Origin: a virus
Strand: one strand, 5' to 3'
DNA: 56,702 nucleotides
Virus genome (UHGV): UHGV-0213557
The position numbers and the translations under genes were made by a program. Positions 218 to 36,765 of this stretch are shown piece by piece. Every line of letters begins with the position of its first letter. Within the stretch, counting starts at the first letter, position 1. The notes under the pieces are model-generated. The model made no database searches, was not told the DNA's origin, and worked only from the letters and a program-made list of their open reading frames with translations.

Positions 218-1021
218 CTAATTATTTTTATACAATATATAGTAGTTTTTCTTGTCTCCTTTGATTGAGATAGGATTATTATTTTCTTTCAACCACACTT
301 TGACCTTTTCTGTAACCTTATTAGAATATTTTGTTACAGTACCAGTCCAATTGCCATTCGTTTCTAATACTGTTTTCATTTCATCTTCTTTAATATCAAG
401 CTTTCTTATAATTTGCTTAACTGCCATAAATGCTGGTTTATTAGACATTGTGTAAAGTCCTAATTTTTTTGCAATCTGCTTTGTATCATAAAAATGTTCT
501 TTTTCTTCAACTTCAAGAGGCAATTCAATACCTGCTCTTTCAAAAAAAGTCTTAGTTACAAGAAGTTTCATACTTTTATCAATGTTTAAATCATCAAAAA
601 TTGGAGTTATTAACCTAATTGACTCATTAACTGTTTCTAATTTTTCTAATGCTTTCATTTCTTTCTTTTCTTCTTTAACTCTAAAATAACTATTTACCAA
701 TTGTCTTTGTACTTTCCAAGCTAAATCATCTGTAAAAGATTTTACTAACATTAGATAACCTGTTTCAGTTAATAAGATTAATTCTCTTGCATTACTGCCA
801 ACGAAATTCGTTGTCTGTTTAATTGTTGATAATTCTTTTCCTTCTAAATAAAAATAGTCCTCATTTTTTATAAAGTGCTTCTTATTTTCTCTAAAATTTC
901 TACCTGCTGTTCCTTCTACTCTTTCATGTACTCTGTCAATTTCTTTAAATGTAACTACTCTTTGATTATTAAATTCCTTAACTTGCACTTCTTGATTGTT
1001 AATTAGTACTAAATTGTTCAT
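218..1021 (-). CDS. Phage antirepressor (ORF6N-like N-terminal domain + KilA-C C-terminal domain)
   Basis: N-terminus ..VTFKEIDRVHERVEGTAGRNFREN..; C-terminus ..FYDTKQIAKKLG..ETNGNWTGTVTKY.. is shared with 2120-2947. Confidence 0.65.
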   Translation of the reverse strand: MNNLVLINNQEVQVKEFNNQRVVTFKEIDRVHERVEGTAGRNFRENKKHFIKNEDYFYLEGKELSTIKQTTNFVGSNARELILLTETGYLMLVKSFTDDLAWKVQRQLVNSYFRVKEEKKEMKALEKLETVNESIRLITPIFDDLNIDKSMKLLVTKTFFERAGIELPLEVEEKEHFYDTKQIAKKLGLYTMSNKPAFMAVKQIIRKLDIKEDEMKTVLETNGNWTGTVTKYSNKVTEKVKVWLKENNNPISIKGDKKNYYILYKNN

Positions 1022-1264: not shown

Positions 1265-1468
1265 ATGTATTTTAACATTGATAAATTACTTGAATCCAAA
1301 GGTCGAACTAGATATTGGTTAGCTAAAGAAGTAGGTATAGCTTATCCTAACATGATGAAATTAGCTAACAATGAAACAAGTTCTATAAAATTAGATTTAT
1401 TCGAAAAGCTTTGTCTTGTTCTTGAATGTACACCTAATGAACTTGTTACTTTATCTAGCAAAGAATAA
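1265..1468 (+). CDS. XRE-family helix-turn-helix regulator (68 aa from the RBS-preceded ATG; the ORF track extends to a TTG at 1199)
   Basis: aagaggtgaaaaa-ATG; sequence ..YWLAKEVGIAYPNMMKLANNETSSIKLDLFEKLC.. is a Cro/CI-type HTH. Confidence 0.65.
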   Translation: MYFNIDKLLESKGRTRYWLAKEVGIAYPNMMKLANNETSSIKLDLFEKLCLVLECTPNELVTLSSKE

Positions 1469-2119: not shown

Positions 2120-2947
2120 TTACTCAATCTTATAAACCACATGATAATTCTTCTTTTCACCTGCAATCTTAGCAGGTCTATTATTTTCCTCTATCCAATT
2201 TCTAACCTTATCTATTACACTCTTTGTATATTTATTTACAGTACCAGTCCAAGAACCATTAGTTTCCCAAACGCCTTTGACTTCGTTTTCTTCTAAATCA
2301 ATCTTTTTAATAATTTCACAAACAGCCAACTGTGCTGGTTTATTACTCTTAGAATATATTTTCAGTTTAGATGCTATTTGTTTTGTGTCAAAGAAAGATT
2401 CCTCTTCTTCAATTTCTATAGGTAAATCAATGCCTGCCTTTTTATATAATGTTTTAGCTGTTAATAGTTTGGATTTATTGTCAAATCCTGCACCATCTAG
2501 CAATTCTTTTAACATAGATGTGCTGTTATAGGCTAATTGTAACTTTTCAATCTCACTTGCTTTTTCTCTTAGTTTTTCGGGATTAGCATTGTTAGTTATG
2601 TATGCACCAGTTTGTCTTATTGATGGTAGTACATCTACTGCTAACCATGTTTGAAATTTTACTGCTATTTCATTTTTAGCTTTCATACCTAAAAGATAAA
2701 ATAATGATTCAGGTATATACTCATCTTTCCCCAACAAGTTGAGGAAACCAAATTCTTTACAGTATTTATTAATAGTTTCCCATCTAATTGATACATATTG
2801 CTTACCATTTTTATTCTGTGTCTGACACCATCCAAACCCTACAGCTGTATCCTCTGCATTAATTCCTATACTTCCATCTTCATATTTAATAGTTCTTATT
2901 TTTATTCCTAATTCATTATTTTCAAAATTCATCAGTTCATTATTCAT
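2120..2947 (-). CDS. Phage antirepressor (Bro-N-like N-terminus + KilA-C C-terminus)
   Basis: C-terminus FFDTKQIASKL...ETNGSWTGTVNKYT... is paralogous to 218-1021. Confidence 0.65.
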   Translation of the reverse strand: MNNELMNFENNELGIKIRTIKYEDGSIGINAEDTAVGFGWCQTQNKNGKQYVSIRWETINKYCKEFGFLNLLGKDEYIPESLFYLLGMKAKNEIAVKFQTWLAVDVLPSIRQTGAYITNNANPEKLREKASEIEKLQLAYNSTSMLKELLDGAGFDNKSKLLTAKTLYKKAGIDLPIEIEEEESFFDTKQIASKLKIYSKSNKPAQLAVCEIIKKIDLEENEVKGVWETNGSWTGTVNKYTKSVIDKVRNWIEENNRPAKIAGEKKNYHVVYKIE

Positions 2948-3070: not shown

Positions 3071-3244
3071 TTACTTATCTTCCTCCAAAAGTAAGTCTAC
3101 TCCTTTTCTTATTGCTTCTGTTCTAGTAAGATTTTCTTTCTCACAATAATCTAATAATTTTTTATGAGTATTTTCATCAAATCTTACTTTGACATCAATA
3201 TTTTTAGGATTATCAACTTTTGGTCTTCCCATTTTAGAACTCAT
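3071..3244 (-). CDS. Ribbon-helix-helix (CopG/Arc-like) regulator, 57 aa, not in the ORF track
   Basis: Hand translation MSSKMGRPKVDNPKNIDVKVRFDENTHKKLLDYCEKENLTRTEAIRKGVDLL; RBS GGTGA. Promoter region 3255-3305 has TTGTGTTCCA direct repeats flanking a TAATATAAT -10. Confidence 0.5.
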   Translation of the reverse strand: MSSKMGRPKVDNPKNIDVKVRFDENTHKKLLDYCEKENLTRTEAIRKGVDLLLEEDK

Positions 3245-3407: not shown

Positions 3408-3831
3408 ATTTTGAATCCACATAGTTAATATAAAACAATTATCCATACCTTTAAAAATTATCTTGCTTCCATTATTTACATACCACTTAGTTAATATAAA
3501 ACATTCAAGAAGTAACTGTAATTGTTCATCTGTAAAATAATTTACATTCCATATAGTTAATCTAAAACGATAGACAAAGCTAGTGCAGACGCTAAAGTAC
3601 AATCATTTACATTCCATATAGTTAATCTAAAACCTTTCATAACTGATGTTAAAGACTCATTATATGTACTATTTACATTCCATATAGTTAATCTAAAACA
3701 GAAAGATTAAAAAATAGAATGATACTTCTTACAACATTTACATTCCATATAGTTAATCTAAAACGAATAACAATAAGAATAACAACAACAATAAAAAGGT
3801 TAATTTACATTCCATATAGTTAATCTAAAAC
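3408..3831 (-). CRISPR. CRISPR array 2: seven repeats. Two distal repeats are the ...CCAC[A/T]TAGTTAATATAAAAC type; five leader-proximal repeats are the variant ATTTACATTCCATATAGTTAATCTAAAAC. Leader at 3832-~4030
   Basis: Repeats start ~3408, 3474, 3540, 3605, 3671, 3736, 3803. Variant reverse complement GTTTTAGATTAACTATATGGAATGTAAAT. Leader (ccccaaaataaac...ctcaaatttgcagtga...gtgcaattgataaca...) is paralogous to 56489-56702. Confidence 0.9.
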
Positions 3832-4228: not shown

Positions 4229-4494
4229 ATAATTTCACCTCCTTCCTTATTTGGAATTTGGCGTTTAATATGAAAATAATCACCCTTCGCACTTTCGATT
4301 ATTATCCTTGCTACAATTATTATAACATATAATTATTACATATTTTTCCATTTTTTTTATATAAACAATGAAATTCAAGTAAATAAATACCTACTTATTT
4401 ATATATATTTTATAAATTAATTGCTTTATAATCAAGTTTTCAATTTTTTAATAAAAATTTTTATTTTTTATTTTATATAAACAATATTTTTTCT

Positions 4495-4652
4495 AATTTG
4501 TGGTATAATAAAAGCAAGAAGAACTACAATCTATTTTGCGGTAGAGTGAAGTTCATAATTAAATGAATCTATTTGAACTTATGGAACTTGATTTTAAAAT
4601 CAAATTCCCAGCCACTTTTACTCTTGCCACGAGTTGAGTGGCTTTTTACTTT
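4495..4652 (+). ncRNA. Putative antisense antitoxin sRNA for toxin 4569-4730: TGgTATAAT at 4501-4509, terminator AGCCAC..GTGGCT+Ts at ~4609-4652
   Basis: Paralogous to the 4030-4170 unit (shared aatttgtggtataataaaagcaag). Confidence 0.4.
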
Positions 4653-25136: not shown

Positions 25137-25778
25137 CTACTTAATTATTCCTTTTTCCCTTTGTAATTTCTCATATCCAACACATATCTGGTCATATTCC
25201 TGTTTACTTAAATCTTTAACTTCTTTATTAAACTTATAATACACTTCACTTTTTACTCTATCTGAATCTTTGCCTATTGTATTTCCTATTGAAAACAATC
25301 TTTTTATTTGATTTTGACTTATTTTTATTTGACCATTTTCACTTGCTTTAATAGAGGAGTTTGTTAAGTCATTTCTTTTATAATCTTCTTTTCCACTAGT
25401 AGCATCAAAAGTATCATTTTCTGTAATGTTTAATAACTGAATGTACAAATACCTTGTCTGATATGTTTCAATTCCTCCTAATGCTTGTAACTCATTAGAG
25501 CCTTTTAATTGTAATTCTCTCATTGGAGAAGTAAATATTATCTCTTCTGTTGGTTTCTCTCCATTAATCAATGTTAGAGTTGCATAATCATTTGTAAAGG
25601 TCACTATAGGGCATAATTTAGCTTCTTGTAACAGCTCTGTTGCTTGAGGTAAGAAGTCTGCTAACTCAAAATATTTAAAGTTAGCAAACTTGTTTTGACC
25701 ACTCTTTTTTATATCTAATTTGTTAAACTTAATTCTTACATCCATCAATTTTATGTAAATATTATTCACTTCCATCAA
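25137..25778 (-). CDS. ERF-family single-strand annealing protein
   Basis: ..KSGQNKFANFKYFELADFLPQATELLQEAKL.. Confidence 0.55.
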   Translation of the reverse strand: MMEVNNIYIKLMDVRIKFNKLDIKKSGQNKFANFKYFELADFLPQATELLQEAKLCPIVTFTNDYATLTLINGEKPTEEIIFTSPMRELQLKGSNELQALGGIETYQTRYLYIQLLNITENDTFDATSGKEDYKRNDLTNSSIKASENGQIKISQNQIKRLFSIGNTIGKDSDRVKSEVYYKFNKEVKDLSKQEYDQICVGYEKLQREKGIIK

Positions 25779-26364: not shown

Positions 26365-26660
26365 TTAAATCCCTCCCAATTTATTACTATCTATATAAGC
26401 TACATTCTAAATTGTTACAATTATTACACATTAAACCTTTTAGAATGTTATATTACCTATTCTAAATCCATTCTTTTTGTGCTATAATTTGTTTGTGTTA
26501 TATTTTATTTTTTATTTTTTTGTGTGTTGGTTATTTGACCAGCACTTTTTTATTTAATACTCCAACCGATATTTTCTTACCAGTTTTAATATCTTTAAAT
26601 ACTATGTCTGCTATAGCTTTTCCATCTTTTTTAAGAGTTACTATATTATTCTTATTAGTA

Positions 26661-27053
26661 TTAAGGCTTAACAATTTCATCCCCCCTCTCTGCTACTTTT
26701 AAAAGTTCATCCAAATTTTTACCTTGATTTCTTTCAATAAAATCATCAACTTCATATCTTGAAATTTTTCTACCATCACCTCTAGCCAGTGATTTTATCA
26801 AACCTGTGCTCACTAACCTACGCATAAAAACTGTATCTAATTTTAAAATTCCCCTTGCTTCTTCTACTGTTATCAAATAATTTGGATAACCTCTTTTTAT
26901 TAAAACAACTATATCTTTAGGCTCCAGTACTTTTACCTTTTGTTCAACAGTTTGACTCTTAACTCTATCTGTTTCTTGTTTATTTATCTCTATTTCTATT
27001 AAACTTTTTAAACTATCACTAAATTGCTTTGTTATACTTTCAGAAATATCCAT
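26661..27053 (-). CDS. Putative DNA-binding protein (HTH)
   Basis: ..EEARGILKLDTVFMRRLVSTGLIKSLARGDGRKISRYEVDDFI.. Confidence 0.35.
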   Translation of the reverse strand: MDISESITKQFSDSLKSLIEIEINKQETDRVKSQTVEQKVKVLEPKDIVVLIKRGYPNYLITVEEARGILKLDTVFMRRLVSTGLIKSLARGDGRKISRYEVDDFIERNQGKNLDELLKVAERGDEIVKP

Positions 27054-27083
27054 GTTAAAATTCTCTCCCCTCTTTTCAAATAT

Positions 27084-27290
27084 TTATCTTCCAACTAATT
27101 CGTCTAATGTAATATCTAAATAATCAGCTAATTTTATTAGAGTATCTATAGTTGGATTAGAATTTTTATTCTTCAACAATTTATATAGACCACTTACATC
27201 TATATTTAATTCCTTTGCTAATTTATAAGGTTTTATATCTCTTTTTCTTAGTATTTGCTTTATATTGTCGCCTATTAACATTGTATTCAC
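27084..27290 (-). CDS. XRE-family HTH regulator (Cro-like)
   Basis: ..NIKQILRKRDIKPYKLAKELNIDVSGLYKLLKNK.. Confidence 0.65.
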   Translation of the reverse strand: MNTMLIGDNIKQILRKRDIKPYKLAKELNIDVSGLYKLLKNKNSNPTIDTLIKLADYLDITLDELVGR

Positions 27291-27356
27291 CTCAGTTCTA
27301 CATGGTATAATATAAACATGGAATAAATTCCAAAATTTTCAAAAGGATGGTGTATT

Positions 27357-27731
27357 ATGCAGTTTTCAAACAATATATCTAAAGAATTACAAGAAAGTAT
27401 AAGAAAGACAGTCTCTGATACTTCTAACACAGAGTATTTTTACTATGCTGAATTTCAATATAAAATTATTCTTAAATCTATAGAGGAATTTGAAAAAGAA
27501 CTTGATGATGAACATGAAATTGCACTAAAATTGACTAACTTTGGAAAAGATGTATTAATGATTGTTGAAGAAGTAGGTTATCATAACCCTTGTCTAATTC
27601 ACTACTACGGCATAGTAAATGGAGTTTATTCTGAAATTCTTCAACACACATCACAGATAAACTTTATGATAACTTCAGTAAAGAAAACTGACCCTTCAAA
27701 ACCTGCTAGAAGAATAGGTTTTATATTGTAA
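27357..27731 (+). CDS. Hypothetical protein, divergent from 27084-27290
   Basis: ORF track. Confidence 0.35.
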   Translation: MQFSNNISKELQESIRKTVSDTSNTEYFYYAEFQYKIILKSIEEFEKELDDEHEIALKLTNFGKDVLMIVEEVGYHNPCLIHYYGIVNGVYSEILQHTSQINFMITSVKKTDPSKPARRIGFIL

Positions 27732-27740
27732 TTATCATTC

Positions 27741-27992
27741 TTATTTTCTGATTCTTTCTTTAGTAATTTCACTAATTTTTCTTTTTTCACTTTTATTCAT
27801 CTCATGTAAATACAAAACTATACATTGGTACATATAATCTATAAAATCACTATTTGATTGAGCTGTTATCTGACTAAATAACTGTGCTTGCAATTGATTT
27901 TCAAGCATGGTTATTCTTTTCTCTATTTCTTCTATTTTCTTATTTTCCAATTCAATCTCTCCTTTCCAAAATATTCTGTATTTAGTTTTCAA
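27741..27992 (-). CDS. Hypothetical protein
   Basis: ORF track. Confidence 0.3.
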   Translation of the reverse strand: MKTKYRIFWKGEIELENKKIEEIEKRITMLENQLQAQLFSQITAQSNSDFIDYMYQCIVLYLHEMNKSEKRKISEITKERIRK

Positions 27993-28006
27993 GGTACTGT
28001 TATGAT

Positions 28007-28801
28007 TTAACTTAACATTGATAATTGTTTACTACTTTTAAACTTATTAACAAAATAAACTTGACCTTTTCCAGTTATTTTTACTGTTCTAGTTACTTTA
28101 GTACTTCCATCAGGATTATTAATTACTCTTTTTTTAACTTCCATTATTCTTAGATTCATACTTTTCTGTGTTGGAATATTATAATCTTCACCTTTACGCT
28201 TAATTAAATATCCATTTTCTCGCATCCAGGTAAATAATCTGTTTTGTCCTATATCTACTCCATTTTGTTTTATAAGTTTTGCAAGTTCTCCAACTAATAT
28301 AGAATTGTTTGAAGCTGAAACTGCATCAGCAAACAGTACTTTTGGTTGCTGTAACTGAATTACCTTATCTTTTTCTTGATTTTCTAATTGTAATTGTTCT
28401 TTTTCTTCAACTTCTACTAATAACTGTTGCAATGCTTCTTTATATGTAGTTGGTAGTTTAGGTTGTTGTTCTTTTAATACTCGTTCCATTTCATTAAATC
28501 TTCTTACATATCTAGCTGTAAAAATAATACCTTTTTCTCCAGTAAATTTATTTGCTAGAAAGTCACAACCTAATTTTGTTACATTATAGCAAGGTCTACT
28601 TTCATTTTTTGAATCCAAATATGTTGATTTTATAAAGTAATCAACCACAACAAAATTGTTGTCGTTAAGAATATCAATAATTCCTTTTGTTTTTTCTGTT
28701 CCTTCTAATTTCCTTAAGACTTCCCAGTGTCTGATTTCTAACATATCAGCAATTTCTAATGTTGTTATTGTATTTTTATTGTTAAGTTGCAAATTATTCA
28801 T
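28007..28801 (-). CDS. Antirepressor (Rha-like N-terminus + KilA-C/AntA-like C-terminus)
   Basis: ..LFTWMRENGYLIKRKGEDYNIPTQKSMNLRIMEV..; paralog of 31258-32070. Confidence 0.65.
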   Translation of the reverse strand: MNNLQLNNKNTITTLEIADMLEIRHWEVLRKLEGTEKTKGIIDILNDNNFVVVDYFIKSTYLDSKNESRPCYNVTKLGCDFLANKFTGEKGIIFTARYVRRFNEMERVLKEQQPKLPTTYKEALQQLLVEVEEKEQLQLENQEKDKVIQLQQPKVLFADAVSASNNSILVGELAKLIKQNGVDIGQNRLFTWMRENGYLIKRKGEDYNIPTQKSMNLRIMEVKKRVINNPDGSTKVTRTVKITGKGQVYFVNKFKSSKQLSMLS

Positions 28802-28842
28802 ATCTAAAGCTCCTTTCTTGTAATCTGAGTCCTTTTATGCTA

Positions 28843-29058
28843 TTATTCATTAAAGAGTTTTTCACAATTAGTATTTAAAATTATAGCTATCTTTAAAGCT
28901 GTACGAATGTTTGGGAGACGTTCGCCAGCTTCATAATATTGATAGCTTCTCTCTGTTATTTTGGCTTTTTGAGCAACCTCTAATTGTGTTAAGCCAATTT
29001 TTTCACGTTGTAGTTTTAAATTATTATTTATTTTCACCCTCTCCTTTTTATTTAACAC
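28843..29058 (-). CDS. XRE-family HTH regulator
   Basis: ..KIGLTQLEVAQKAKITERSYQYYEAGERLPN.. Confidence 0.7.
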   Translation of the reverse strand: MLNKKERVKINNNLKLQREKIGLTQLEVAQKAKITERSYQYYEAGERLPNIRTALKIAIILNTNCEKLFNE

Positions 29059-29110
29059 GCCAATATTGTTCGTGCTATGTTTTATATATTACACGCTAAT
29101 ATTGTTCGTG
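29055..29110. promoter_or_regulatory. Two 20-bp operator repeats ACACGC[C/T]AATATTGTTCGTG (each an internal palindrome CACG..AATATT..CGTG) between divergent XRE genes
   Basis: Copies at ~29055-29074 and ~29091-29110. Confidence 0.55.
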
Positions 29111-29149
29111 TCAAGAAATTTATTTATTTTTTTATTGGAGCGTGTAGTT

Positions 29150-29368
29150 ATGACTAAATTCAAAGATAATATTAAGCTAGTAAGAAAGCAAATGAATATG
29201 ACTCAAAAGCAATTTGCTAGTTTGTTTGGTATCTCAGAACGTGCATATCAGTATTATGAAGCTGGTTCAAGAGAACCAAATCTAGAAACTTTAATATTAA
29301 TTTCTAACAAACTTAATGTATCTACAGATTTTTTGTTAGGTCTTTCGCCTAACCAAAATAGAAATTAA
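29150..29368 (+). CDS. XRE-family HTH regulator (73 aa from the RBS-preceded ATG; the ORF track extends to 29066)
   Basis: ..MTQKQFASLFGISERAYQYYEAGSREPNLETL.. Confidence 0.65.
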   Translation: MTKFKDNIKLVRKQMNMTQKQFASLFGISERAYQYYEAGSREPNLETLILISNKLNVSTDFLLGLSPNQNRN

Positions 29369-29505
29369 TATTCAACTTTCGTCTGCTTTTTAGCAGGCGT
29401 ATTGTTGTTTGCTCTATTTCCATCTAATCACCTCTTTTGAATATTCTGTATCTATTTCTTAACACATTATCTCAGTACACCATGTTATAATTAACTTAAA
29501 TTCTA

Positions 29506-29718
29506 ATGAAAGTTGGTGTTATCATGAAGTTTGTTTATGTTAAGATATTTAATAACTGGATTGATATAACTGATATTGGCTCTATAAATGGCTGTAATGC
29601 AATTGAATATATTAATGAAAACCTTGATAAAATGTACTCTAGTAATTATGTTTCTATAAATTACAAAGATAAAAACTATTGCATTCATCCATCATGTATT
29701 CAAATAGTTACAAAATAA
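29506..29718 (+). CDS. Hypothetical protein
   Basis: ORF track. Confidence 0.25.
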   Translation: MKVGVIMKFVYVKIFNNWIDITDIGSINGCNAIEYINENLDKMYSSNYVSINYKDKNYCIHPSCIQIVTK

Positions 29719-29800
29719 AGTGTTTATCTCTCTTTAAAAAACTTTTAAGGGAGATATTTTTATTTTATATTTAGTTTTCAAAGTGCTGTTGTGATTTAAC

Positions 29801-30592
29801 TTAATTTTTGCTTAAATCACTTGATATTCCATATTTTAAAGCCATATCTTTTACAATAGCAACATACCCTTCTATGAGTTTCTTATCATCTTGTATTACA
29901 TCTAAATTGTTAACTTTCTCTCTTTTAGATTCAGATACACCTTCTTCTGCCATTTTTCTTCTTTTATTGATCAATCTTCTATGTAGGTCAACTCCAAATC
30001 TCTTATTTAATAATTCATAACTTTCTGTTCTAAGCATATTTATATGTTCAAAACCACCTTGTTTTTTTGCTATTCTTGCAATTAGTTGATGTGTATTTGT
30101 TCTCCAACTATTTGAGTCTAATGAAACTACATCTTTTATTGTTTCAACCTCTGTCTTTGCTTCTAAAGCAATGCTATTTGCTTGATTAACTTGAAGTCTT
30201 AAATCTTTCATTTCTTTTAAACTTTCTATTAATACATCTTCTATACAAGTTGGCTTATGTTGCTTAACTTTGAAATATGTTTCCTCTAAATTATCAAACT
30301 GTTCCCAAGCCTTATCTGTATCTAATATTTTGCAGTGTCTATTTGCTCCTCTTTCAGTCCAAAGATACATTTTTGAAGCAAATTTTAGGTTTTCATATTC
30401 TGTATGAATGCCTTTAAAATTCTTTAAATCATCACCTTGCAATAAAAAATAATGTTTACCTTCAATAAACTTATCTTTGTTATTGTTGAAATTGTTACTT
30501 ATATTTCTTGAGTCAGTTTCATATACATCTGCTAATTGTTGTGTAGTTAGAACTCTCTCATTATTTCTTTCTATTACTTGTAAGTTATTCAT
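29801..30592 (-). CDS. Antirepressor (ORF6N-like)
   Basis: ..RVLTTQQLADVYETDSRNISNNFNNNKDKFIEGKHYF.. Confidence 0.6.
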   Translation of the reverse strand: MNNLQVIERNNERVLTTQQLADVYETDSRNISNNFNNNKDKFIEGKHYFLLQGDDLKNFKGIHTEYENLKFASKMYLWTERGANRHCKILDTDKAWEQFDNLEETYFKVKQHKPTCIEDVLIESLKEMKDLRLQVNQANSIALEAKTEVETIKDVVSLDSNSWRTNTHQLIARIAKKQGGFEHINMLRTESYELLNKRFGVDLHRRLINKRRKMAEEGVSESKREKVNNLDVIQDDKKLIEGYVAIVKDMALKYGISSDLSKN

Positions 30593-30764
30593 GTTTATCT
30601 ACCTCCTTTTTATAACTTCTATATTCTAATAACTCAAATTCCTTCCATAGTATATCTAATATAAATGAGTTCTTAGTTAACCCTAAGTATTTTGATTTTT
30701 TCGTTATTTCTTCATTTAATTTTTCTGGCATCCTAACAGTTATTCTCTTTTTATTTGAGTTCAT
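30585..30764 (-). CDS. RHH (CopG/Arc-like) protein, 59 aa; its stop overlaps the start of the antirepressor
   Basis: Hand translation MNSNKKRITVRMPEKLNEEITKKSKYLGLTKNSFILDILW... Confidence 0.45.
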   Translation of the reverse strand: MNSNKKRITVRMPEKLNEEITKKSKYLGLTKNSFILDILWKEFELLEYRSYKKEVDKHE

Positions 30765-30899
30765 TTTGCCGTCAACCCCTTTCTTGTTTTAATAATATCA
30801 CGCCGTCTTTATGCCGTCAATATATTTTATAGATTTTCTATAAATTATTTTTATGATATAATTATGACATCATTTAGACTTTAAAAAGGAGGTATTATT

Positions 30900-31079
30900 A
30901 TGTCAACTTCACTACCTAAATACACTTTAAGAATAAACAGAGTTCTGCTTGAAAAAATTAAATATATAGCTGAAAGCGAAGGTCGTTCTGCTAATAAGGA
31001 AATTGAACAAATAATAAAAAAACATATTGAAGATTATGAGCAAAGAAAAGGAGAAATTAAAATTAATATTGAAGAATAA
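30900..31079 (+). CDS. Arc/Mnt-like RHH regulator, 59 aa
   Basis: Hand translation MSTSLPKYTLRINRVLLEKIKYIAESEGRSANKEIEQIIKKHIE; AAAGGAGG RBS. Confidence 0.5.
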   Translation: MSTSLPKYTLRINRVLLEKIKYIAESEGRSANKEIEQIIKKHIEDYEQRKGEIKINIEE

Positions 31080-31257
31080 TTTATATACTCTTGCTAATCA
31101 CTGATAGTATGTAATCATTCACTGACATACCTCTTTGATTAGCTTTTTCTTTACATTTATTGTATAATTCTTTCGTAATACTCAAGGTATACTTCTTTCT
31201 ATTACTCAACCTTTAAATCACCTCTTTTTGAATATTCTGTATTTATTTTTCAAAGTA

Positions 31258-32070
31258 CTAACATAACATTGAAGTTTGATAACTATACTCTTTTTCTATA
31301 TCTGGTAATATGTTATTTACTTTTAATAAGTCATATAAAAACAATCTTCCCTTTTGAGTCCACTTAGTTGTCATTTTTACATCAGTCATTCCATCACTTC
31401 TAGTTATGTCTATTGTTTCTGAATGAGTGTATCCCTTCCCTTGGTGTTGTTTATATAAAAGCCATTGTCCACTTTGTTTATATTGAATCCCTCTTTCATG
31501 AAGTATTTTATTCATTTCTTTTCCACTCATTCCATAGTCTTTTGCTATTTGAGTTATTGTGACAAGTCCTTTGTTTTTAAGTATCATATCTGTATAATCT
31601 GCCTTTGGTTTTAGTTCTTTTATTACTTGGTCTTTCATTTTTCCTTCTAGTTGTAATTTCTCATTTACTTCTACTTGCTCTATAAGATGTTGTAATGCTT
31701 CTTTATATGTAGTTGGTAGTTTAGGTTGTTCATTTTTTAATACTTGCTCCATTTCTTCAAATTTTTTTGTATATATTCCTGTAAATGCCGTACCTTTTAT
31801 GCCTGTCATTTTATTTGCTATGAAGTCACAACCTATCTTTGTTATTGCATAGCATGGCTTCTCTCTTTTATAATCATCTAAATAAGTATTTTCAATAAAA
31901 TAATCAGATGGGTACAAATCTGTACTCATGTTTTTATTGGCTTCTTCCATTTGGTTTATATAATTTCTTATATCCCTTAGTAAAATCTTGTGTTCTTTTT
32001 CAACCATTAGAGCTATATCTCTACTGTCAGTTGTTAGTTTATTATTAACTTTTACTATTTTTAAATCTTT
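31258..32070 (-). CDS. Antirepressor (Rha-like + AntA/KilA-C); the ORF track's upstream extension to 32151 is unlikely
   Basis: ..TTYKEALQHL.. paralog of 28007-28801. Confidence 0.6.
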   Translation of the reverse strand, partial: KDLKIVKVNNKLTTDSRDIALMVEKEHKILLRDIRNYINQMEEANKNMSTDLYPSDYFIENTYLDDYKREKPCYAITKIGCDFIANKMTGIKGTAFTGIYTKKFEEMEQVLKNEQPKLPTTYKEALQHLIEQVEVNEKLQLEGKMKDQVIKELKPKADYTDMILKNKGLVTITQIAKDYGMSGKEMNKILHERGIQYKQSGQWLLYKQHQGKGYTHSETIDITRSDGMTDVKMTTKWTQKGRLFLYDLLKVNNILPDIEKEYSYQTSMLC

Positions 32071-32075
32071 CATAT

Positions 32076-32297
32076 TTAACTCCTCTCTTTTAAACAACAT
32101 CTTGTTGTATTTGTATTTAAAAAAATTTTTTCTATTGATACTCCAAAACATTTAGATAATTTTATTGCTATTGCTAAACTTGGTACTCTTGTTCCACTTT
32201 CAATCATTCCATAATAACTAGTAGTTATACCTACTTTTAATGCAACATCTTTTTGCTTTAAATTCCTTTCTGTCCTAAGTTCCTTTAGATTGTTCAA
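32076..32297 (-). CDS. XRE-family HTH regulator (Cro-like)
   Basis: ..LKQKDVALKVGITTSYYGMIESGTRVPS.. Confidence 0.7.
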   Translation of the reverse strand: MNNLKELRTERNLKQKDVALKVGITTSYYGMIESGTRVPSLAIAIKLSKCFGVSIEKIFLNTNTTRCCLKERS

Positions 32298-32449
32298 GCT
32301 ATATCCTCCTTACCAACATTTTGTTGTTTATACTTATATAATACACAACTATATGTTGTTTGTAAATAGTTTTTTTATTTTTTTATTTCATTTTACAACT
32401 ATTTGTTGTATTATTTAATAAAGGCAACTTTATTAAGAGGAGTGATTAT

Positions 32450-33013
32450 ATGAGCATTTTATCAGATAGATTGAAATTTCTTAGGAAAGAAAAAGGTGTA
32501 ATGCAAAAAGAAATTGCCAACTATCTTAACATAACTACTAGTGCATATGGATTTTATGAACAAGGTAAAAGAACACCTACCCCAGAAATGTTATCTAGTT
32601 TAGCTGAATATTTTGGCACTACTGTTGATTATTTAATAGGTAGGTATGATAATAAAGCAAGCAATATTTCTAGCAAAACTTCTTGTAATAATACATTATT
32701 TCAAAAAAGACTAAAAGAACTTAGAGCTGAAAAAAATATGACTCAAGAAGATGTTGCAAATAAATTAAACTTAACCAAAAGCGCTTATGGTTATTATGAA
32801 CAAGGAAAGACAGTTCCTGATGCTTATATGCTATCTAGCCTTGCTGAAATATTTAATGTGACTACTGATTATTTATTAGGTAGGTCTATTGTAAAAAATG
32901 ATATAGACACTGTAGCTGCACATAGAGTTAATCCTCACAAAGATTTACCAGAGGAAGCTCAAGAACAACTCAATGATTATATTGAATTTTTAATAAATAA
33001 GTATAAAAAATAA
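32450..33013 (+). CDS. Tandem double XRE-HTH protein; likely lysogeny repressor (ImmR/CI-like)
   Basis: Two HTH_XRE units (..MQKEIANYLNITTSAYGFYEQGKRTP.. and ..TQEDVANKLNLTKSAYGYYEQGKTVP..); divergent from the Cro-like 32076-32297. Confidence 0.65.
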   Translation: MSILSDRLKFLRKEKGVMQKEIANYLNITTSAYGFYEQGKRTPTPEMLSSLAEYFGTTVDYLIGRYDNKASNISSKTSCNNTLFQKRLKELRAEKNMTQEDVANKLNLTKSAYGYYEQGKTVPDAYMLSSLAEIFNVTTDYLLGRSIVKNDIDTVAAHRVNPHKDLPEEAQEQLNDYIEFLINKYKK

Positions 33014-34888: not shown

Positions 34889-35395
34889 ATGAACAAACTA
34901 GACGCACTTTTAGACTTAGCAAATAATGAAGAGATAGAAATTTACTACACTGACAAAATAGCAGATGACATAAAAGGATTGTATATAAACAGACAAGGAC
35001 TAAAAATTATATCATTACTTAATTCATTAAAACAAAACAATGCTAAACTAATAGAAATCTTAGCAGAAGAATTAGGACATCATTTTACCAGTGTTGGAAA
35101 CTATGTATCTTCAAAAAACAGTTACAAAAATAAAATCTTGATAGACAAAACTGAAAACAAAGCACTAAAATGGGCATGTGAATTTCTTATAACAGAAGAA
35201 GAAATAATACATGTTATTAATTCACACGCTACAAGTGTATACGAAATAGCTGAAGAATTACAAGTTAGCATCAACTTCTTACTAAAAAGATTAGAATTTC
35301 TATCAAAAAAGAAAAGCATGTTGGACTTAGGAAATAATAGATTTTTAGTATTAACTAATTTGCCAAATTTCTACATATATGAGGATATTTTTTAA
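34889..35395 (+). CDS. ImmA/IrrE-like metallopeptidase (atypical EELGHH motif)
   Basis: ..ILAEELGHHFTSVG..; position between repressor and integrase. Confidence 0.45.
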   Translation: MNKLDALLDLANNEEIEIYYTDKIADDIKGLYINRQGLKIISLLNSLKQNNAKLIEILAEELGHHFTSVGNYVSSKNSYKNKILIDKTENKALKWACEFLITEEEIIHVINSHATSVYEIAEELQVSINFLLKRLEFLSKKKSMLDLGNNRFLVLTNLPNFYIYEDIF

Positions 35396-35634: not shown

Positions 35635-36765
35635 ATGAAAGGTGGAGTAAGAAAAAGAAGTAACAAATGGTATTACTACTTTGACCTAGGCATAGTAGAA
35701 GGAAAAAGAAAAAAAGTAGAAAGAGTTGGAGGCAATACTAAAAAAGAAGCAGAAAAAGCCTTAAGAGAAGCACTAAATGAATATGAAAACTCTGGCATAG
35801 TATTTGAAGAAAGCAATATCAGTTTATCAGACTACTTAGACTTTTGGTACAAAGAATATGTCTTACTTAACTGTAAATACAACACTCAAGAAAGCTACCG
35901 AATAAACATAGAAAAACATATAAAGCCAAAACTAGGAGCTTACAAAGTAAAAGCTTTAACTCCTGCAATACTACAAAACTTCATAAACAGAAAGTACAAA
36001 GAGGATTACTCTCAAAATACATTACAAGTATTAAAAGCCATATTACATAGGTCATTAAAATCAGCAGTCCATCCTTACAAACATATACGAGAAAACCCTA
36101 TGCAATATGTGAGCATACCAAAAACTAAATCTAAAACAGAAACTAATAAAATTAAAACTATTACATTAGAAGAATTTAATCAAATACTAAATATATTTCC
36201 TCAAGATTCATTTCAACGTATAGTTTTACTAATTGGATTTCATACTGGTATGCGAAGAGGTGAAATTATTGCACTAAAATGGGATAATATAGACCTTGAT
36301 AATAAAACTATCACAGTAAGACATACTTTGATTAAAAAACCAAATGGAATGTTTGAATTAGGGCAACCAAAAACAGAAAGCTCTTGCAGAACTATATTTA
36401 CAGGTGACACTTTAATAAAGGCATTAAAAGAACATAAATTATATCAAAAGAAAATGAAATTAAAATATGGAGAATTTTACTTTGATAGTGACTGGGTATG
36501 TACCAAAGAAAATGGTCAACAAGTGAATACTCACACTTTAGACACTATAGTAAGACAAATTCGAGTAGCTTTAAACAATGACTTCCATTTTCATTCTTTA
36601 AGACATGCACATGCTACTCTATTATTAGAAAATGGTGCTAACATTAAAGACATACAAAACCGTTTGGGCCATAGCCAACTATCAACTACAATGGATACCT
36701 ATTCACATGTAACTGATAAAATGAAAAATGAAACTGTAGATATATTTGAAAAAATTACAAATTAG
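35635..36765 (+). CDS. int: Tyrosine integrase (site-specific recombinase)
   Basis: ..LIGFHTGMRRGEIIALKWDNID.. / ..HSLRHAHATLLLENGANIKDIQNRLGHSQLSTTMDTYSHV.. (R..HxxR..Y). Confidence 0.9.
   Translation: MKGGVRKRSNKWYYYFDLGIVEGKRKKVERVGGNTKKEAEKALREALNEYENSGIVFEESNISLSDYLDFWYKEYVLLNCKYNTQESYRINIEKHIKPKLGAYKVKALTPAILQNFINRKYKEDYSQNTLQVLKAILHRSLKSAVHPYKHIRENPMQYVSIPKTKSKTETNKIKTITLEEFNQILNIFPQDSFQRIVLLIGFHTGMRRGEIIALKWDNIDLDNKTITVRHTLIKKPNGMFELGQPKTESSCRTIFTGDTLIKALKEHKLYQKKMKLKYGEFYFDSDWVCTKENGQQVNTHTLDTIVRQIRVALNNDFHFHSLRHAHATLLLENGANIKDIQNRLGHSQLSTTMDTYSHVTDKMKNETVDIFEKITN

Follow-up and report, generated by a model that had tools for sequence, protein, structure and literature searches.

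A conserved non-coding element at gene junctions of C. difficile phages and its likely part in the exchange of antirepressor cassettes

We have examined a repeat in UHGV virus genome UHGV-0213557, a stretch of 56,702 nt (hereafter the window) from a temperate phage of Clostridioides difficile, of the phiCD119/phiC2 type. The repeat, which we call E, is about 45 bases long, with a core of 21-30 nt inside a whole of about 45-60 nt, and it lies at junctions between early genes, in most cases behind an antirepressor-like (Ant-like) gene. E has a defined non-coding anatomy, is restricted to phages of one host species in the searches made, joins upstream and downstream genes in many combinations and contains breakpoints of homology between phages. 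We consider it likely that E serves as a short patch of homology for the recombinational exchange of gene cassettes, a patch reaching over the translation start region of the gene that follows.

Anatomy, flanks and distribution of the E element

Three copies of E in the window (c1, c2 and c3; Table 1) match a 27-mer with no more than two mismatches, where 100 shuffles gave an expectation of zero, and a profile search revealed a fourth, diverged copy, c4, at 29427-29499. Copy c1 follows the Ant1 gene, whose stop codon (28007-28009) lies within the element, and continues into the ribosome-binding site of orf69, a gene that also comes directly after an Ant3-type gene plus E in phiCDKH02 and in 10 or more other loci. 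Copy c3, behind Ant3 (stop codon at 31258-31260), leads into a 42-aa Arc-like gene that has AGAGGTGAT as its ribosome-binding site and a TTG start codon (31209). In c2, which follows Ant2 (stop codon at 29801-29803), the 3′ third is replaced by a stem-loop (29726-29755). This stem-loop, read from the sequence and absent from the list of the terminator scan, has the look of a terminator for a convergent + strand open reading frame (ORF; 29506-29718). Copy c4 carries an insertion of about 14 nt, has no Ant gene upstream and precedes a 24-codon ORF (29349-29423) with a ribosome-binding site; this ORF overlaps the terminator of the convergent XRE gene, an arrangement also found in phiCD119 and in one further locus, L012. 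On the gene strand, the consensus of E reads TTARGTTAAA-N10-AGYACY-TTGAAAACTAAATACAGAATA-TTYWRAAARGAG. The element is always oriented along transcription and is confined to the early region.

Within a shared TTAAGTTAAATCA, Ant1 and Ant2 end in different frames, their stop codons being offset by 4 nt, and the stop codon of Ant3 falls at a third place; in other phages an Ant ORF terminates within the core of E, at AACTAA. Since different Ant stop codons fall at different places and in different frames inside E, the element is non-coding, which answers the objection, raised in a preliminary description of this DNA, that the motif might be conserved coding sequence of the Ant C-termini. That description had placed a conserved element on the 3′ side of the Ant genes. 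The element proved to be real and present in four copies, but it accompanies only three of the five Ant-like genes of the window and is not specific to such genes.

Full flanks were available for 138 copies of E, and clustering of 300 nt on either side yielded 13 upstream and 26 downstream sequence clusters, joined in 44 combinations. Upstream of about 117 of the 138 copies we found Ant-like genes with unrelated domain sets, and upstream of the rest small cro-like XRE genes, gene remnants or non-coding sequence, so that E, as a junction in the early operon, mostly but not always stands after an Ant cassette. The genes downstream are small and varied (Arc-like, HTH_17/excisionase-like, cysteine-rich, a 31-aa hydrophobic peptide and several unknowns). 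Their start codons lie 18-25 nt past the core in most downstream clusters, and the conserved stretch takes in the ribosome-binding site. Calling the repeat an Ant 3′ flank, as had been done at first, is right for most copies, but E also follows cro-like XRE genes and its link to the downstream start is at least as tight.

Two observations on the flanking genes were made outside the window. In IMG/VR loci (for example L006, 2566-2700), 13 copies of E precede the 31-aa ORF, which is absent from the window and whose product, with its charged N-terminus and hydrophobic tail (MKNKEKEIIIRGILIGIFYFLGIVFSNTFFK), is possibly a small membrane peptide or a toxin. In L003, about 330 nt upstream of E on the - strand, an ORF6N Ant gene survives as a 70-aa remnant that passes, at a GGAATAT microhomology, into the usual last codons of the gene; this internal deletion has left E intact.

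A module linker is expected to keep the same sequence between non-homologous flanks, and this is what we observed, E having 81% identity over 37 nt compared to 31% in the flanks of the same pairs. Behind genes for unrelated proteins, c1 and c2 keep 89% identity over 44 nt, and E is conserved far better than the genes before it, as the 35% identity of Ant1 and Ant3 illustrates. Ungapped extension failed to give the length of E owing to indels beside the core, and per-position conservation was used instead. Exact shared runs had a median length of 17 nt in pairs within a locus and of 20 nt in pairs between loci (p = 0.001). The comparison asked whether selection keeps the copies of one genome dissimilar, but the flanks that pairs share confound it.

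The exact 21-nt core occurs in 145 copies in 107 IMG/VR contigs. A profile search gave 198 copies of E in 115 loci, with 1-3 copies per locus, the loci comprising those from IMG/VR, regions fetched from reference phages and the window. Among 185,579 species genomes (one per species) there were 75 exact matches to the core, and the extended element was present in two sequences only, namely a C. difficile chromosome and a contig binned to a Veillonella metagenome-assembled genome that carries the same C. difficile-phage sequence; the other exact matches are chance A/T-rich hits. With a 50-nt E query, 25 of 50,697 phage records matched, all of them from C. difficile phages, which span several genera and have 1-3 copies each, for the most part in intergenic DNA without annotation. 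In the searches made, E is restricted to C. difficile phages.

A literature search for the core sequence returned unrelated hits only, one on C. difficile phage mosaicism and antirepressors returned nothing on E, and the supplements of PMC3649979, on transcription starts of strain 630, contain neither a complete table of start sites nor anything on antirepressor genes. C. difficile phage regions with several Ant genes are already known (PMC11172241); in the passages of that article on the phiCDKH01 region that a term search covered, a conserved junction element is not mentioned. E itself appears to be undescribed in the literature searched.

Homology breakpoints at E and a model of cassette exchange

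Between 26.5 and 33.1 kb the window consists of blocks with 75-98% identity to phiCDKH02, phiCD119, phiMMP02, phiC2, CDMH1 and phiCDKH01, and no single phage covers more than about one third of this region. The alignments of window segments 26459-27998 and 31231-31728 to phiCDKH02 meet in one and the same stretch of 29 nt within its single E copy (4471-4499 of its locus), and a three-way alignment placed the switch of parentage relative to phiCDKH02 within TTGAAAA. Because both segments meet in this one copy, the window differs from the 'Ant3-E-orf69' arrangement, found in phiCDKH02 and more than 10 other loci, by a 3.26-kb block that lies between two E copies and holds two Ant modules. The block shared with phiCD119 (27964-29457, 93% identity) extends exactly from c1 to c4, and the XRE/XRE-Ant1 module is common to phiCD119 as a block. 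The block shared with CDMH1 (gp45; 29761-30611, 95.5% identity) extends from c2 to 19 nt upstream of the Ant2 start. Homology to phiCDKH01 begins at the same 5′ boundary of Ant2, window positions 30581-32175 having 85% identity to the lysogeny control region of that phage.

Across the loci, ends of homology blocks (high-scoring segment pairs of at least 200 nt and at least 85% identity) were enriched 7.3-fold within 25 nt of E, and a breakpoint was present at 98.7% of the E junctions versus 65.8% of other same-strand junctions, figures that are upper estimates because all loci were collected through E. In addition, E forms the largest family of short homology islands in the loci, with 245 nodes versus 48 for the next. 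The earlier suggestion that the modules were shuffled by recombination at the repeat is thus supported by the breakpoints inside E that emerged with phiCDKH02, phiCD119 and CDMH1, by the 44 flank combinations and by the enrichment.

Other, smaller island families were seen in the early regions of the related loci (for example at L186 2083-2134 and L029 1417-1459). Two of them are absent from the window. One has the palindrome TTAACTTCTAGGAAGTTAA at 48 sites, and the other consists of a ribosome-binding site plus the ATGAATAATCTACAGATATTTGAA start of Bro-N genes at 20 sites, a possible 5′ junction of Ant cassettes.

With near-identical sequence at many junctions in many phages, E would act as a homology patch. 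Its 5′ part supplies stop codons to any gene upstream, and its 3′ part leads into the ribosome-binding site of the downstream gene, from which translation would proceed. Co-infecting or co-resident phages would recombine at E through host RecA or an ERF-type annealing protein of the phage, both of them candidate enzymes. Allelic exchange at equivalent E positions would swap a cassette, and exchange between copies at different positions would presumably insert or delete whole modules. The latter kind of exchange would account for the three early Ant modules of this phage, as a 'cro-Ant3-E-orf69' backbone plus the 3.26-kb block with its Arc/Arc-Ant2 and XRE/XRE-Ant1 modules. The phage's own ERF protein belongs to the Rad52-like recombinase group, which makes it a candidate agent at E. 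Rad52-like phage recombinases act on short, diverged homology, the minimal length for efficient pairing being 23-27 bp versus 31-34 bp for RecA (PMC3945230), and the commonest variant of E provides between-genome runs of about 23-27 bp.

Several points weigh against the exchange of cassettes as the role of E. The E copies of the window share exact runs of just 10-15 nt, and exchange between the window's own copies would be inefficient since such runs are below the published minimal pairing lengths. The ascertainment of the loci on E biases the breakpoint enrichment upward, and other junctions in mosaic early regions are also rich in breakpoints, as the 65.8% given above indicates. When homologous contexts are compared, the conservation of E does not exceed that of the coding sequence beside it. 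Furthermore, recombination alone leaves the near-invariance of E across several genera unexplained, and a selected function could be primary, with recombination as a by-product.

The idea of modular evolution behind linker sequences at phage module junctions is reportedly that of Susskind and Botstein, and boundary sequences have been reported between genes of lambdoid and dairy phages. Like these, E is a short conserved non-coding sequence at gene boundaries, with non-homologous flanks and internal breakpoints, and, as in the linker model, mosaicism would arise by homologous and not by illegitimate recombination. Unlike them, it is a single defined element, reused one to three times per operon (four times here), in one host species and mostly after Ant-like genes. 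E would offer a concrete, testable case of the linker model and would explain the three early Ant modules of one phage. To our knowledge, only temperate phages are known for C. difficile; its strains are often polylysogenic, and their control of lysogeny is poorly understood. E could serve annotation as a mark of cassette boundaries, predict the sites at which engineered phages would recombine with prophages and offer a natural insertion point for cargo.

Alternative explanations for E

E might mainly be a selected cis-regulatory site, either bound near gene starts by a host or phage factor (protein or RNA) or kept as an open A/U-rich leader that sets the translation of the gene behind each cassette, with recombination as a side effect. 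We regard this explanation, which can coexist with a role in cassette exchange, as possible although somewhat unlikely. It fits the start codon at 18-25 nt from the core in most downstream clusters and the reach of conservation into the ribosome-binding site, as well as the fixed orientation and the early location. The core, TAAATACAGAATA, is near-invariant over the 198 copies and across phage genera, and folding is weaker than in shuffled sequence, which fits a site left open for ribosomes to land. In 21 instances, however, the ribosome-binding site is 48 nt off, past unrelated sequence, and no gene follows c2; nor did we find a candidate binding factor, and E is unlike any operator of the window. 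Should E have such a factor, the lysis-lysogeny decision would gain a new point of control.

The start-associated sequence (SAS) of Cluster K mycobacteriophages (13 bp, 11-19 copies per genome, containing the Shine-Dalgarno core) is a precedent for such a site, alike in behaviour; a regulatory role has been proposed for it, but its function is not known (PMC3203893). The two sequences are unrelated, but both are asymmetric, have a single orientation, stand a few nucleotides ahead of the starts of unrelated genes and are specific to a group of phages; SAS lies in the non-structural half of the genome and overlaps the ribosome-binding site, and the upstream stop codon is sometimes inside it, as in E. 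E differs from SAS in its core of 21-30 nt, its position upstream of the ribosome-binding site, its 1-4 copies and its tie to cassette breakpoints, and the passages of PMC3203893 consulted describe no comparable recombination role for SAS. That a conserved factor of the host or the phage (a protein or a small RNA) recognises E and coordinates expression of the genes after the cassettes, or actively promotes cassette capture, seems improbable to us. If this were true, C. difficile phages would have in their early operon an integron-like platform dedicated to the collection of anti-immunity genes.

Antisense RNAs classically restrain antirepressors (sar in P22, c4 in P1), which speaks for E as a promoter, whether a non-sigma-A or phage-directed one for the downstream genes or one on the opposite strand for an antisense RNA against the 3′ end of ant. 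The core does contain TTGAAA, one variant has TATAAAAT, and the + strand of c1 reads TGTTATGAT, by eye an extended -10-like sequence. Yet TTGAAA is separated from any -10-like hexamer by 8-10 nt, TGTTATGAT is lost from the + strand of c2 and c3, no position of either strand shows a sigma-A-like site in as many as 15% of 73 distinct contexts, and the window scan revealed no sigma-A promoter at any E copy. Likeness by eye to SigH, SigE and CodY sites is partial and broken in common variants. We hold a promoter to be decidedly improbable. A dedicated site for a site-specific recombinase, with the Ant modules as integron-like cassettes, might be suspected from the fact that all E copies are direct repeats bracketing whole modules. 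It is very improbable, given that E has neither inverted repeats nor dyad symmetry, that no E-like sequence occurs near the integrase/attP region, that the integrase and ERF are the sole recombinase genes identified among the selected ORFs scanned and that crossover positions vary in and around E, as homologous exchange predicts. Hardly credible is a coding role, either as Ant C-termini or as a leader peptide (TTG AAA ACT AAA TAC AGA ATA, that is, MKTKYRI...). The last codons of Ant1 (SMLS and stop) and Ant3 (SMLC and stop) indeed fall in the 5′ edge of E and a short frame opens at TTG in many copies, but the stops of upstream genes occupy at least four positions in different frames.

Further candidates were considered. 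The leader-peptide mini-ORF (MKTKYRIF...) lacks the TTG in 20 of the 198 copies, has no preceding ribosome-binding site and varies in a manner that is not codon-like. Likeness by eye to motifs of SigK, Spo0A, LexA and MazF (UACAU), as to those of SigH, SigE and CodY, was partial at best, broken in common variants and amounts to no more than a lead. E shows no likeness to the phage operators (ACAAC-N5-GTTGT, CACGCYAATATTGTTCGTG and GCCGTC). The window scan found no terminator-like site at E, and folding of the gene strand relative to shuffled sequence (z = +0.46 to +0.88) gave no sign of a structured RNA. Rfam held no match for E at the gathering threshold or at an E-value of 5 or less, and no E-like sequence was present in CRISPR spacers.

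Antirepressor modules and the surrounding phage

Table 1. Coordinates of the E copies and of other features of the window.
Feature	Position	Strand	Evidence and remarks
E copy c1	27957-28015	-	TTAAGTTAAATCATAACAGTACC / TTGAAAACTAAATACAGAATA / TTTTGGAAAGGAGAG; nhmmer 45 bits
E copy c2	29761-29804	-	after Ant2
E copy c3	31217-31262	-	after Ant3
E copy c4	29427-29499	-	diverged; profile 13 bits, E-value 0.008
Ant1	28007-28801	-	Rha-N + KilAC/ANT (1e-36), 264 aa; Pfam, PHROGs
Ant2	29801-30592	-	ORF6N domain (1.4e-23), 263 aa; Pfam, PHROGs
Ant3	31258-32073	-	Rha-N + KilAC (3.6e-39), 271 aa; second gene of main early (cro-like) operon
Distal Ant-like gene	218-1021	-	ORF6N N-domain; without E copy; Pfam, PHROGs
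Distal Ant-like gene	2120-2947	-	Bro-N (1.6e-5, just over Pfam cut-off); without E copy
orf69	27741-27950	-	phrog_3385, function unknown; gene after c1
XRE gene	28843-29058	-	first gene of Ant1 operon; Pfam
Two near-palindromic operator copies, CACGCYAATATTGTTCGTG	29056-29110		putative
Divergent XRE gene	29151-29368	+	opposite Ant1 operon, position of P22 Mnt; Pfam
Intrinsic terminator	29380-29399		follows XRE gene 29151-29368
Arc-like ribbon-helix-helix gene	30585-30764	-	phrog_582, 3.5e-10; position of P22 arc
Three GCCGTC repeats	30768-30818		putative operator; overlap promoter-like TTGACG-17-TATTAT (-)
Divergent Arc-like repressor gene	30900-31079	+	opposite Ant2 operon, position of P22 mnt; PF03869, 5e-8
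42-aa Arc-like gene	31081-31209	-	phrog_582, 5e-8; TTG start at 31209; directly after c3
Divergent XRE gene	1265-1468	+	beside 218-1021
Repressor-like gene	3071-3244	-	upstream of Bro-N gene 2120-2947; phrog_876, 2.5e-18
Cro-like XRE gene	32076-32297	-	first of early operon; last codons carry Ant3 ribosome-binding site
Fourth main-type operator, ACAACATCTTGTTGT	32094-32108		inside 3′ end of cro-like gene, 21 nt before Ant3 start
Main genetic switch, three ACAAC-N5-GTTGT operators	32313-32409		between cro-like gene and repressor
Two-HTH repressor	32450-33013	+	lysogeny gene
SIR2-like protein, 533 aa	33025-34626	+	between main repressor and ImmA-like peptidase
ImmA-like peptidase	34889-35395	+
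Integrase	35635-36765	+
ERF-family single-strand annealing protein	25137-25778	-	phage's own recombinase

The presence of five Ant-like genes, as listed in the preliminary description, was borne out by Pfam and PHROGs, and all five are full-length. The label rests on homology, with Pfam matches to ANT (1e-36 and 3.6e-39), Phage_pRha (2e-23 and 4e-21) and ORF6N (1.4e-23 and 1.6e-16) and matches to PHROG 'anti-repressor' families down to 2e-149. The true start of Ant3 is the ATG at 32073, not 32151. Ant1 and Ant3 have 35% identity, Ant2 and the 218-1021 product 34% in the N-domain only, and the products of 2120-2947 and 218-1021 51% in the C-domain only. An expansion by duplication did not hold up, the paralogs being 34-51% identical and alike in a single domain in two of the three comparisons; at such identities, the set represents accumulated, diverged and domain-shuffled cassettes and not recent duplication. 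So many Ant-like genes could plausibly serve several induction inputs, or act in anti-immunity towards other prophages.

Each of the five Ant-like genes adjoins a gene for a small DNA-binding regulator. The regulator genes noted before directly upstream of three of them were confirmed, namely the XRE genes at 28843 and 32076 and the Arc-like gene at 30585, which overlaps the Ant2 start by 8 nt (ATGAATAA). The additional ribbon-helix-helix genes that had been proposed, at 30900-31079 (PF03869) and 31081-31209 (phrog_582), are both Arc-like, and the two divergent XRE genes, one opposite the Ant1 operon and the other beside 218-1021, are new to the list. The operator predicted in two copies was found as CACGCYAATATTGTTCGTG at 29056-29074 and 29092-29110, overlapping divergent promoter-like sites, TTGACA-17-TAATAT (-) and TTAACA-18-TATGTT (+).

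In the immI region of P22, mnt lies opposite arc-ant, together with the sar antisense RNA. The Ant2 module resembles this plan in its wiring, its Ant gene being preceded in the operon by an Arc-like ribbon-helix-helix gene; a divergent Arc-like gene lies opposite, with the GCCGTC repeats as a putative operator over a promoter-like site. In the Ant1 module, with its divergent XRE gene and putative two-copy operator, a like plan is built from XRE proteins. Unlike in P22, the genes upstream of Ant1 and Ant3 are of the XRE and not the ribbon-helix-helix type, several modules are present in one phage, Ant3 lies inside the cro operon, and the Ant families are Rha, ORF6N or Bro-N plus KilAC. A search for a sar-like antisense RNA gave no Rfam match, and neither the Ant genes nor E proved to have an antisense promoter nearby that recurs. 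In phiCDKH01, of the same phage group, an XRE repressor controls the promoter that drives two KilAC antirepressor genes (PMC11172241), whereas the window has three early and two distal Ant modules.

The early genes run leftward on the - strand, from 32297 into the block of replication and recombination genes. The operators of the main switch are unrelated in sequence to E. The fourth operator of this type, within the cro-like gene, might, in the manner of a stoperator, enable the repressor or Cro to stop read-through into Ant3. Stoperators of Cluster A mycobacteriophages match the operator of the repressor at the early promoter. Like these sites, which PMC3203893 contrasts with SAS, E is asymmetric, occurs several times in short gaps between genes and points along transcription, but it differs from ACAAC-N5-GTTGT, and the stoperator-like feature of the window is the operator at 32094-32108.

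The 42-aa Arc-like gene (-) and the Arc-like gene of the divergent module (+) converge at 31079-31081 with a gap of 1 nt and without a terminator, so that read-through from the early operon would run antisense over the + strand repressor gene and into the Ant2 operon. The SIR2-like protein matches the PADLOC candidate defence family PDC-S25 (E-value 3e-154), and its gene is probably a prophage-borne anti-phage defence gene. In the early region of phiCDKH02 (L108 371-943, phiCDKH02_17) a sigma-70-family protein is annotated, in a part to which the window has no DNA homology. The G+C content of the window is 28.5%.

Finally, the window holds three CRISPR arrays (1513-1803, 3408-3831 and 55603-56488) with a common 29-nt repeat (Rfam CRISPR-DR14). 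All are oriented for transcription of the - strand, and each closes with a similar degenerate terminal repeat. The array at 1513-1803 has five repeats and is below the Rfam gathering threshold. The two distal Ant-like genes, 218-1021 and 2120-2947, are interleaved with the first two arrays.

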